From: an uncultured Bacilli bacterium | GTDB lineage: Bacteria; Bacillota_I; Bacilli_A; RF39; UBA660 | Assembly: GCA_944331895.1 (NCBI GenBank) | Contig: CALVIX010000002.1 | Location: 97,099 to 161,098 of the forward strand | Reading direction: 5' to 3' | Length of the DNA: 64,000 nucleotides | Shown here: piece after piece, positions 23,336 to 26,049 of the stretch | Layout: each line of letters opens with the position of its first letter | Position numbering within the stretch: position 1 is the first letter of the stretch | Made by a program: the position numbers and the translations under genes | The notes under the pieces: generated by a model | Databases searched by the model: none | What the model saw: the letters and a program-made list of their open reading frames with translations, nothing else | Told to the model about the DNA's origin: nothing

Positions 23336-23716
23336 ATGAATTACAAAAAATATTTTGAAACGATGAGTATCTGTTTCGGCGTTGGTTTGTTATCACTCTT
23401 AGTATCTAGCTTTATTTTAACTGTTTTAAACTACTTCGATCTTGTGACTGGAAACATTTTTACGATTTTAAAACTACTAATACCATTTTTATCCCTATTG
23501 ATAGCAGGTATTCTACTCGGTCGGAAAAGTAAATCAAAAGGATGGCTAGAAGGTCTAAAATTAAGTTTAGGATTCATCGTCTTATTTACGCTCATTCAAC
23601 TATTCTTTCTAGAAGATCCATTCCGCCTTACGAATGTTTTGTATGATGCTATTTTAATGATGATTACAATATTCGGTAGTATGCTTGGAATCAATATGAA
23701 AACAAATCAAAAATAA
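23336..23716 (+). CDS. TIGR04086/YrzE-like four-TM membrane protein
   Basis: GILLGRKSKSKGWLEG motif; divergent from the DUF421 gene. Confidence 0.85.
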   Translation: MNYKKYFETMSICFGVGLLSLLVSSFILTVLNYFDLVTGNIFTILKLLIPFLSLLIAGILLGRKSKSKGWLEGLKLSLGFIVLFTLIQLFFLEDPFRLTNVLYDAILMMITIFGSMLGINMKTNQK

Positions 23717-23750
23717 AACATAGATATCAACAATGGTATCTATGTTTTAT
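23713..23750. terminator. Bidirectional terminator between yrzE-like gene and toxN
   Basis: 14-bp perfect stem ATAAAACATAGATA/TATCTATGTTTTAT. Confidence 0.8.
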
Positions 23751-24249
23751 TTTTATTATATTCAATACATTTTTCCTCTAATAATGTAAAATTGCAACAC
23801 CTTTTAGCAATACTACGATTTAATGTTCCGTTAACATATTTATTATATAATTTTTTAGATCTACCATATAATTTGTTATTATTACGATTTAACCAAAACA
23901 ATTGTTCCTTTAATAACTTTATGTATTTTTCTTCTTGGCTTGTAAAACAATCCTTGTCTAAATCTAACTTAATGATATTTTGATTTGTTACTGGTAGCAT
24001 ATTATTAAAGTTAATTGCTCCTAAATTACCATTGTCTATTTTTAGAAAATCTAAAGTAGTTTTCATTGTTTTATGTTTCGGCTTAGGACTAGATAATGGT
24101 GCAAAGTACTTACAATTATTTATTTCAAATAAAATTCCTATAAATGGTCTTAATTCTTTTTTATTTTTATTATAAGGAACTTTATCATCAAACTGTCTTA
24201 AATAATCACAATAATTATAATCCAATCTTACCAATATAAAATGTTTCAT
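23740..24249 (-). CDS. toxN: Type III toxin-antitoxin endoribonuclease toxin, ToxN/AbiQ family
   Basis: ..Y.DYLRQFD.KVP.NK, RPFIGI.F.I....YFAPLSSPK.KH, LG.INFNNMLPV; preceded by repeats and a terminator. Confidence 0.92.
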   Translation of the reverse strand: MKHFILVRLDYNYCDYLRQFDDKVPYNKNKKELRPFIGILFEINNCKYFAPLSSPKPKHKTMKTTLDFLKIDNGNLGAINFNNMLPVTNQNIIKLDLDKDCFTSQEEKYIKLLKEQLFWLNRNNNKLYGRSKKLYNKYVNGTLNRSIAKRCCNFTLLEEKCIEYNKNKT

Positions 24250-24281
24250 AAAATCACCTTCGAGCCCATTGCATTTTAATT

Positions 24282-24314
24282 AAAAAAATAGGACTAGAGT
24301 TTGCTCTCTAGTCC
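24282..24314 (-). terminator. Intrinsic terminator between antitoxin repeats and toxN
   Basis: GGACTAGAG/CTCTAGTCC stem plus U7, the usual type III TA layout. Confidence 0.88.
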
Positions 24315-24315
24315 C

Positions 24316-24425
24316 TTTTTTATGTTCGCTGTTATGGCCGGAATCGCCGCTTTTTTAAGTTCCTGTCAAAGCCGGAATCGCTTCTTTTCAATTTCCTCTC
24401 ATAGTGGGAATCACTAGCTTTTTTT
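24316..24425 (-). ncRNA. toxI: ToxI-like RNA antitoxin: three diverged 32-37 nt pseudoknot repeats separated by A-tracts
   Basis: GAUUCC core recurs every 33-34 nt; each unit has a stem around the core and a downstream GGAA/GCGAA; A6-7 (or AAAAGAA) spacers. Confidence 0.82.
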
Positions 24426-24485
24426 GCAACAAGTTGCGTTATTATTATATGCAACAGTGTGCAACATAATCACTTATGCACTAAT

Positions 24486-24514
24486 AATATAGCAAAATAT
24501 TAAACAATTGTCCA
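24486..24514 (-). promoter_or_regulatory. SigA promoter of toxI-toxN
   Basis: TGGACA-N17-TATATT with extended TG. Confidence 0.7.
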
Positions 24515-24699
24515 GTTGCCAATAAAAAAGGGATAAATTTTATATAATCGGCGAAGAAAAAAATCTTCCTTACCTCTCAATAAATATGATACAAGCTATC
24601 ATTCAAAATTCCTTCTATTTCTATAAAAAACATAGACAGAATCAAAGCGCCTATGTTTTTACTTATAGTTTATATATTATTTTTCATACTTACAATCAT

Positions 24700-26049
24700 T
24701 TATAACTTCCACTCATTCTTTATCTTCGTAGCAACCAGATCCAAATGCATCTTGCGCGATCCTTTTACCAAAATAAAAGTATCTTCTAATTTCGCATAAT
24801 CTAATGCCTTCATTAACTCTTCTGTATCTTCAAAATGTGCACAGTGCTTTAACAATTTTGGAAATTGCTTTGTTTCTTCCCCAACACAAAGAACTTCTAA
24901 ATTACGGCATTTCTTTAATTTCTTCGCGATTTCTCGGTGAATCTTGTTTCCAAATGTACCTACCTCTAAAATATCACCAAAAATTAAAAGTTTCTTTCCG
25001 CGATAAAGGTTCATGTAATCGATATCAGCAAGTACGGAATCTAAACTCGCATTATAAGTATCGTCAACTAAAGTATTATTCCCCTTTAACGTGATTTTTT
25101 CCAATCGTTTTTCAAAACATGGCATCTCTTTCACTGCTTTTTGGATCAGTTCGATTGGAACATCACATAAAATACCCATTTCGATCGCTAAAAGTAAGTT
25201 TGTAAGTAAATGTTTTCCTCCATAAGGATAAAAGAAGGGATATTTCTTATGATCTATTAAAAGTTGAAAGGATAATGTATCTAAAGTCGCGTTAATTCTA
25301 CTTGCTTTCGTCATCGCATTTCTACGAGTACCACAAAAACCTACCTGATAATCTTTCGTATCCTTTAACTTACTCAGTCGTTTATCATCGCCATTTACTA
25401 ACAATATTCCATCTTTCAAACCTTCTGTAATTTCCATCTTAGCTTTCATAATACGGTCCATAGAACCTAAAAATCCAATATGAGCACTCCCTATTTTCGT
25501 AATCATTGCAACATGTGGTTCACACATACGAGATAATCTTGAAATTTCTCCTTCGTGATTCATTCCTAATTCGAGAACGCAAATTTCATCTGTTTCTTTC
25601 AAAGATAGCAAAGTAAGAGGAACACCAATATGATTGTTATAATTTCCTGGAGATTTTGCGACACGATACGTTTGACTCAAAATGTGCGCAACCATCTCCT
25701 TTGTCGTCGTCTTGCCAACGCTCCCAGTAATCGCAATCAAAAGTCCGTGAAAATATGTATTTTTATGGTGTTTTGCTAACGCAAATAGAGCTTCTGTCGT
25801 ATCCTCTACTAGTATCACTGGAGTAGATATGTTTTCTACCTTCTGCGATACGATAATAACCCCCGCACCTTTTTCGGAAGCCTCTTTCACATAGATATGT
25901 CCATCTTGCGTCTTTCCTATAATAGCAATAAATATATCTCCTACTTCCATTGTACGTGTATCGATAGAGACATGCTTCTTTATCTCTTTTTCATCACTCC
26001 CTGAAAGTATCTTCCCATTTACGATGTGCGCTATTTGTTTCAGTCTCAT
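24700..26049 (-). CDS. murF: UDP-MurNAc-tripeptide--D-Ala-D-Ala ligase
   Basis: DTR, ITGSVGKTTTKE, NNHIGVP, ELGMNH.GEI, DDTYNAS, VKGSR. Confidence 0.96.
   Translation of the reverse strand: MRLKQIAHIVNGKILSGSDEKEIKKHVSIDTRTMEVGDIFIAIIGKTQDGHIYVKEASEKGAGVIIVSQKVENISTPVILVEDTTEALFALAKHHKNTYFHGLLIAITGSVGKTTTKEMVAHILSQTYRVAKSPGNYNNHIGVPLTLLSLKETDEICVLELGMNHEGEISRLSRMCEPHVAMITKIGSAHIGFLGSMDRIMKAKMEITEGLKDGILLVNGDDKRLSKLKDTKDYQVGFCGTRRNAMTKASRINATLDTLSFQLLIDHKKYPFFYPYGGKHLLTNLLLAIEMGILCDVPIELIQKAVKEMPCFEKRLEKITLKGNNTLVDDTYNASLDSVLADIDYMNLYRGKKLLIFGDILEVGTFGNKIHREIAKKLKKCRNLEVLCVGEETKQFPKLLKHCAHFEDTEELMKALDYAKLEDTFILVKGSRKMHLDLVATKIKNEWKL

Follow-up and report, generated by a model that had tools for sequence, protein, structure and literature searches.

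The described type III toxin-antitoxin systems closest to the locus analysed here are ToxIN_Bt from the B. thuringiensis conjugative plasmid pAW63 (4ATO), ToxIN_Pa from P. atrosepticum pECA1039 (2XDB/2XDD; Rfam ToxI) and the AbiQ/antiQ pair of Lactococcus lactis. ToxIN_Pa combines a promoter, 5.5 repeats of 36 nt that are reported to be uniform, a terminator and toxN; its antitoxin is an H-type pseudoknot cut within A-rich sequence at AA/AU, its toxin uses the catalytic residues Y29, K33, T52, S53 and K55, and published ToxI_Pa work found that a single repeat type suffices. ToxIN_Bt has approximately three 34-nt units (x 2.9-3.1) that start AAAAAA, each laid out as an A-tract, 2 nt, stem 1, a 2-nt loop, stem 2, stem 1', an A-rich loop, stem 2' and a 3-nt tail. 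ToxN_Bt cuts at A/AAAA and AbiQ at A/AAA, and the complexes are triangular with 3:3 composition (PMC5086642). One lactococcal plasmid array (36 nt x 3.1, unit AAAAGCGGUGAAUCUCCACCAUCAAGUGAGAAUCAA) is 96% uniform, and plasmid arrays other than that of pAW63 are 87-98% uniform.

A recent paper (PMC12283969, Sci Rep 2025) describes toxI repeats as 'nearly identical' and treats non-identical repeats as a feature of tenpI, the antitoxin of the TenpIN family, whose repeats differ by up to 35% and are still able to form pseudoknots. The same paper asks whether each non-identical tenpI repeat works. Here we describe a ToxIN locus and its relatives that together provide a comparative answer for ToxIN to the question posed for tenpI. 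TenpIN itself differs from our locus in having another toxin family, longer units and usually two repeats.

The locus studied here shares the cassette order and the unit layout of ToxIN_Bt, and the two arrays are equally heterogeneous. The heterogeneous design is therefore already present in the characterised B. thuringiensis system and is not new in kind. A sequence-only reading of our locus, made without database searches, had described characterised arrays as near-identical; that is how PMC12283969 presents them, but ToxI_Bt reaches only 75-76% TRF matches, and as read from the pAW63 sequence and the present one, the 'nearly identical' contrast is contradicted. The differences between the two systems lie elsewhere. 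The ToxI_Bt units carry compensatory changes in stem 2 (ACCU/AGGU, ACUC/GAGU and GCCU/AGGC), whereas those of our locus are concentrated in stem 1, with one further pair in stem 2; the stem sequences are unlike, our leader is long and structured, and our cassette is chromosomal in a gut metagenome-assembled genome (MAG) rather than on a conjugative plasmid. The lactococcal plasmid array, unlike ours, is nearly uniform, and it has in common with our family a GCGGUG...CACC stem 1 and the layout.

A complete toxIN cassette in a gut Bacilli genome

The window analysed is a 64,000-nucleotide stretch of an uncultured gut Bacilli MAG (1.12 Mb, 83% complete). Sequence reading combined with scans identified a complete toxIN cassette of about 0.8 kb on the minus strand, comprising a promoter, a leader, three ToxI units, a terminator and an intact toxN. 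The earlier proposal of a type III toxIN locus was thus borne out. Apart from the units, which are listed below, its parts are:

24486..24514, minus strand, candidate promoter P1, with -35 TGGACA at 24514-24509, a 17-nt spacer and a TG-extended -10 TATATT at 24491-24486
24426..24479, minus strand, toxI leader RNA of about 55 nt, from sequence and fold, with a start point deduced from the position of P1
24316..24321, minus strand, fourth A-tract, read from sequence; the AAAAAAG before the terminator is conserved in related loci
24282..24315, minus strand, intrinsic terminator between toxI and toxN, with a stem-loop at 24315-24290 and a U-tract at 24288-24282
24255..24261, minus strand, toxN ribosome-binding site GAAGGUG, read from sequence; GAAGGTGAT is conserved in relatives
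23740..24249, minus strand, toxN, 169 aa, intact, from the open reading frame and Pfam
23709..23754, both strands, palindrome of 20 pairs with a T-run on each strand, a bidirectional terminator for the convergent genes toxN and DUF3792

The toxin matches Pfam PF13958 (ToxN_toxin) over profile positions 3-159 of 159 with an E-value of 1.5e-49 and 168.6 bits against a cut-off of 25. It also matches the PADLOC AbiQ model at 1.3e-40, with only about 40% identity to the toxins of AbiQ and related lactococcal plasmid loci. Its closest solved structures are 4ATO (ToxN_Bt, 1.5e-23) and 2XD0 (ToxN_Pa, 4e-20), followed among PDB matches by 7D8O (E. coli ToxN) and 4GLK (AbiQ). When aligned with phmmer, the window toxin places S-S-P-K over T52-S53-P-K55 of ToxN_Pa and an R over K33, and Y29 falls in a gap. 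The genome encodes one ToxN only, and a search of this 83%-complete assembly for a second ToxN or for orphan ToxI-like units found none, which argues against the earlier suggestion that the units neutralise different ToxN variants.

P1 matches the consensus at 10 of 12 positions and carries the TG extension. The -35 element (TTGACA/TAGACA), the spacing and TGnTATATTA are kept in nearly all of 50 aligned related loci, and we infer that P1 is used as the promoter. Downstream, the leader begins with a hairpin or palindrome (CAUAA-GUGA-UUAUG), carries a UGCA..UGCA element around a second TATAAT-like box and ends in a hairpin (GCAAC-UU-GUUGC, 24437-24426) directly 5' of the first A-tract. Among related loci the structure of this last hairpin is kept and its sequence changes (GCAACUUGUUGC, GCUACUUAGUAGC, GCCUUAUGGC and GCUAUUAAUAGC). 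The leader as a whole is structured and conserved, with a short leader in its place in some related loci, and it could serve transcript stability or act as an operator or a second promoter.

The terminator between toxI and toxN has a 10-pair stem that includes 5 G-C pairs and leads into a U-run; its sequence, ACUAGAGAGCAnACUCUAGU, is conserved in almost all relatives, and the region holds four terminator-like sites against 0.2 expected from shuffles. Cleavage at the fourth A-tract, just upstream, would release the 3' end of the last unit. Between this terminator and the toxN ribosome-binding site, most relatives (e.g. L004, L016, L023 and L060) have a TATAAT box, often as TGTATAAT or TATATAAT, at a place where the window has TAAAAT (24274-24281, minus strand). 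Judging from these boxes, toxN may have a weak promoter of its own, unlike the model of a single promoter with a leaky terminator. The cassette layout is the same in nearly all of the best 80 of 322 ToxN relatives.

Three unlike ToxI units

The array consists of three units, all on the minus strand, whose sequences and pairings are as follows.

24389..24425, minus strand, ToxI R1, type A, 37 nt, AAAAAAAGC-UAGUG-AUUCC-CACUA-UGAGA-GGAA-AUUG
R1 stem 1, minus strand, UAGUG 24416-24412 with CACUA 24406-24402, from sequence and comparison
R1 stem 2, minus strand, UUCC 24410-24407 with GGAA 24396-24393, plus C24406:G24398 over bulged A24397
24357..24388, minus strand, ToxI R2, type B, 32 nt, AAAAG-AAGC-GAUUCCG-GCUU-UGACA-GGAA-CUU
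R2 stem 1, minus strand, AAGC 24383-24380 with GCUU 24372-24369
R2 stem 2, minus strand, UUCC 24377-24374 with GGAA 24363-24360, plus G24373:C24365 over bulged A24364
24322..24356, minus strand, ToxI R3, type C*, 35 nt, AAAAAAGC-GGC-GAUUCCG-GCC-AUAACAG-C-GAA-CAU
R3 stem 1, minus strand, GGC 24348-24346 with GCC 24338-24336
R3 stem 2, minus strand, UUCC 24343-24340 with G24329 and GAA 24327-24325, bulged C24328 between them, plus G24339:C24331

Every stem and loop that the sequence-only reading had written out is present in the minus-strand sequence where it had been placed. Each unit opens with an A-tract and four A-tracts bound the array, so that the unit lengths of 37, 32 and 35 nt agree with the 32-37 nt products that had been predicted. 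UUCC is present in all three units and GGAA is whole in R1 and R2, but a one-base bulge splits GGAA in R3. The base after UUCC, previously assigned to stem 1 or the loop, instead has its partner two positions upstream of GGAA and so lengthens the pseudoknot stem 2 over the bulged A. The units had also been said to conserve structure but not sequence; the changes between them are indeed compensatory (see below), but pairwise identities of 68%, 69% and 74% show that much of the sequence is kept as well.

The A-tract at the 5' end of R2 is only AAAA (24388-24385), and these four A's fall short of the A/AAAA site reported for ToxN_Bt. Should the window ToxN need A/AAAA, cleavage of the R1|R2 junction may be less efficient or displaced. 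At this junction (24385-24391, minus strand) the window, L002 and the same-genus genome G001 have UUGAAAAG, and other relatives have CUUAAAAAAG.

Repeat detection depended on the settings. A repeat search returned 3 copies with spacings of 34 and 33 nt, and TRF with relaxed mismatch settings recovered all three units with a score of 104, at a period of 33, 3.2 copies and 74% matches. Under its strict published default (2,7,7; score 50), TRF reported R2-R3 only, as 1.9 copies with a score of 89. The expectation that repeat finders would miss such an array therefore fails for the window, which TRF does report, but holds for L003 and L025, two related arrays of three units that go completely undetected by default TRF. 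Strict tandem-repeat settings thus under-call heterogeneous arrays.

Comparative evidence for an intra-unit pseudoknot

Scanning one genome per species yielded 322 stretches encoding ToxN relatives, of which the best 80 were kept (59-93% identity, almost all of them gut 'Bacilli' or 'Tenericutes' MAGs), and 95 distinct units from these 80 related loci were aligned. In the proposed H-type pseudoknot, columns 9-12 pair with 20-23 as stem 1 and columns 15-19 pair with 42-47 as stem 2, with column 43 bulged. Over the 95 units, which are related paralogues and for which covariation therefore counts cells and not independent events, 90.1% of cells were paired compared to 77.7% in shuffles, of which 0 of 500 got as high, and 26-50% in controls with slid partners, and the covariation score was 0.383 compared to 0.178.

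Stem 1 varies while remaining paired: among the 95 units, pair 10:22 is GC in 55 and AU in 38, pair 12:20 is UA in 50, CG in 32 and UG in 8, and pair 9:23 is UA in 28 and AU in 19. The same columns vary within the window, where 9:23 is U-A in R1, A-U in R2 and unpaired in R3, 10:22 is A-U in R1 and R2 and G-C in R3, and 12:20 is U-A in R1 and C-G in R2 and R3. Two-sided changes separate R1 from R2 at 9:23, 12:20 and 19:42, and R2 from R3 at 10:22, and the fold is retained by all three units alike. Together with the covariation across the 95 units, these changes bear out the earlier proposal of non-identical pseudoknots with compensatory changes in stem 1.

For stem 2, UUCC:GGAA is nearly invariant and hence uninformative for covariation, with the exception of L079, in which it is replaced by GCCC:GGGC. 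Pair 19:42 covaries, being CG in 41 units, GC in 38, AU in 6, GU in 3 and UA in 1, with 6 of the 95 unpaired. With stem 2 mostly invariant, the support for the pseudoknot comes mainly from this one covarying pair plus the divergent locus L079.

Two other pairings were considered and rejected. Closing the hairpin with 13:19 in place of 19:42 pairs 46% of units, compared to 94%. The minimum-energy fold pairs GGAA with the UUCC of the next unit, and heterogeneous arrays provide a natural test of whether this helix forms within a unit or between neighbours. We scored the partner of column 42 at the 50 discriminating junctions, i.e. those at which neighbouring units differ at column 19, and counted 47 pairings inside the unit and 3 with the following one. 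This places the helix within single units and makes it a pseudoknot. Overall, covariation gives good support to each unit being an H-type pseudoknot with single-stranded tails.

Folding energy did not add to this. Stem 1 is the minimum-energy fold of each single unit, with z-scores of -0.9, 0.0 and +0.2 relative to shuffles; as these values do not improve on shuffles, they do not count as evidence for the fold. For the 176-nt region as a whole, z is -2.3, a value dominated by the terminator. A search of Rfam over 23500-24800 on both strands returned no family, ToxI included, at E <= 10 apart from chance-level snoRNA and miRNA matches. On this comparison the window ToxI is a sequence lineage other than the Rfam ToxI seed, one that the Rfam models leave uncovered; its membership of the toxin-antitoxin family is unaffected.

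Array composition and conservation among relatives

We next compared arrays among the relatives. The ordered array A-B-C* occurs in 15 loci, the window included, where A is UAGUG/CACUA, B is AAGC/GCUU and C* is GGC/GCC with the one-base bulge CAG-N-GAAC. These arrays make up two well-supported ToxN clades and also occur in L059, and the derived arrays A-B-D, A-B-B and A-C-C* are nested inside the A-B-C* clades. The bulge form (N = U, C or A) is the last unit in all 15 loci, and its surroundings are fixed.

Over the 15 loci, orthologous units are 0.969 (A), 0.947 (B) and 0.961 (C*) identical, compared to 0.840 for toxN overall, 0.712 for its third codon positions and 0.601 for its fourfold sites, and paralogous units within one array are 0.752 identical. 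Conservation of 95-97% in the units, compared to 60% at the fourfold sites of toxN, places each unit individually under purifying selection. By the same sequence comparison, the heterogeneity of the units is older than the divergence of the 15 loci.

Unlike units are common in the family. Among 74 complete arrays, 63 have three units, 2 have one, 4 have two, 4 have four and 1 has five. Only 4 of the 68 arrays with at least three units show a single stem-1 signature, and 29 show three. TRF match percentages of related arrays have a median of 92 and range between 71 and 100, and 27 of 71 related arrays, mostly with intact toxN, are at least 95% homogeneous. Uniform arrays (C-C-C, D-D-D and E-E-E-E) and other mixes (A-D-D, A-B-B and A-E-E) exist alongside intact toxins, and intact toxN is likewise found with C* units only in L054 and with a single A unit in L051. 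Uniform arrays and other mixtures with an intact toxN indicate that no particular mix is required. The first unit is almost always of a distinct type (GCUAGUG...CACUAU), even where later units match each other, a pattern compatible with homogenisation in which the array edge is spared.

Seven related loci (L009, L068, L074, L038, L045, L063 and L066) carry a toxN broken by nonsense or frameshift. L009 and L068 have two-unit arrays with a B/C chimeric second unit, the product that inter-unit recombination would be expected to give.

Proposed mechanism and competing explanations

We consider it very likely that the locus is a complete, probably active type III cassette of the ToxIN family (ToxN/AbiQ) whose pseudoknot units reflect structure-constrained divergence. 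Cassette anatomy, toxin family, the pseudoknot by covariation, selection on each unit and unit order were computed directly. By analogy with the characterised systems, transcription would start at the conserved promoter and run through the structured leader and then the three ToxI units, and the terminator would pass only part of the transcripts into toxN, leaving antitoxin in excess. ToxN would then cut the precursor at the four A-tracts into monomers of 37, 32 and 35 nt. Each monomer is predicted to adopt the same H-type pseudoknot, with a stem 1 of 3-5 bp and variable sequence, an A-rich loop 3, and a stem 2 made of UUCC:GGAA plus one covarying pair across the bulged A. The monomers would neutralise ToxN by keeping it inactive, most likely in a closed ring of 3 RNAs and 3 proteins as in ToxIN_Pa, ToxIN_Bt and ToxIN_Ec; the modal number of three units per array (63 of 74) fits such a ring. 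A stop in transcription, for example upon phage infection, would deplete the short-lived RNA and free the RNase. An anti-phage role acting through abortive infection, which the sequence-only reading had also thought probable, is suggested by the family annotation (PADLOC AbiQ).

According to this explanation, the three units are old paralogues, each kept functional, as the conservation values indicate, by purifying selection. Unit sequences differ mainly in stem 1, where pairing alone seems to matter, and the tails, stem 2 and A-tracts that stay unchanged among units are likely the parts for protein contact and cleavage. The best reading of the heterogeneity, here as in ToxI_Bt, is divergence under structural constraint in the absence of homogenisation and not a new mechanism, and our findings leave the known type III mechanism unchanged. 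In this family, then, arrays often combine unlike ToxI units, purifying selection acts on each unit separately, and the differences between units preserve one pseudoknot.

Divergence could also have been selected for array stability, as unlike repeats would recombine or slip less and the antitoxin copies would be protected. This idea is compatible with structure-constrained divergence, and we regard it as possible but rather improbable. It would account for the two-unit arrays of L009 and L068, which combine a chimeric second unit with a broken toxN, and more generally for the enrichment of broken toxN among reduced arrays of one or two units (3 of 6 compared to 4 of 68, Fisher p = 0.009), although these counts are low and come from MAG assemblies. 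The many arrays (27 of 71) that are at least 95% homogeneous and mostly have an intact toxN speak against it, as does the genome G001, in which toxN is deleted internally while the A-B-C* array is intact, so that loss of the toxin can come first.

Less probable still is a specialised heteromeric design, in which one A, one B and one C per transcript form an ordered, asymmetric 3:3 ring, or in which graded affinities or half-lives tune the release of ToxN. Several regularities described above point in this direction: A-B-C* order is kept in 15 loci whose units are 95-97% conserved while toxN fourfold sites are at 60%, exactly three units occur in 63 of 74 complete arrays and match the 3:3 complexes of the literature, the first unit is nearly always distinct, a single stem-1 signature is seen in only 4 of the 68 arrays of at least three units, and the bulge in the last unit is conserved. 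If the three units were a stoichiometric kit for one ordered 3:3 ToxN ring, or set three thresholds of ToxN release, this would explain the retention across species of the number three, the order and the sequence of each unit; we judge that to be just as unlikely. Against specialisation stand the intact loci with A-D-D, A-B-B, A-E-E, C-C-C, D-D-D or E-E-E-E arrays, the intact loci L054 (C* units alone) and L051 (one A unit), the restriction of unit differences mostly to stem 1 with tails and stem 2 common to all, and the published sufficiency of single repeat types for ToxI_Pa. The present evidence does not require unit specialisation, and differing affinities, as suggested by the sequence-only reading, would be a matter of conjecture.

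That only one unit works as antitoxin and the others are drifting relics, as might be imagined from units only 68-74% alike, the interrupted GGAA and 3-bp stem 1 of R3, the short A-tract of R2 and the same question raised in print for non-identical tenpI repeats (PMC12283969), is highly improbable given that the interspecies conservation of each unit far exceeds that of neutral sites, that changes between units are compensatory, and that the R3 type in L054 and the R1 type in L051 are sole units beside an intact toxN.

Genomic setting

The cassette lies between a DUF3792 gene and murF. Among the best 80 of 322 relatives the same flanks occur only in L002, and they recur in the same-genus genome G001. 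In G001 (L097 230-720) the A-B-C* array, promoter and terminator are intact, and an internal deletion has removed approximately codons 21-122 of toxN; as its sequence reads, this is an antitoxin array outliving its toxin. A same-family genome has DUF3792 and murF without toxIN, and in other species the cassette sits among assorted unrelated housekeeping genes. A search for an integrase or transposase within 1.5 kb of the cassette in related loci found none. Plasmids gave no close relatives of the window ToxN, the best match being from Fusobacterium at 48% identity and all falling below 60%, and phage records gave only distant ToxN matches at up to 44% identity. We read the cassette as one inserted between housekeeping genes of a small-genome gut bacterium.

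Between murF and the toxIN promoter, L097 (960-1455, minus strand) and L002 have an extra open reading frame of about 165 aa, which is absent from the window (24530-24700). By eye, this reading frame of the same-genus genomes carries a Nudix-box-like motif (GRVRFMETTKEALIREVLEEVG).
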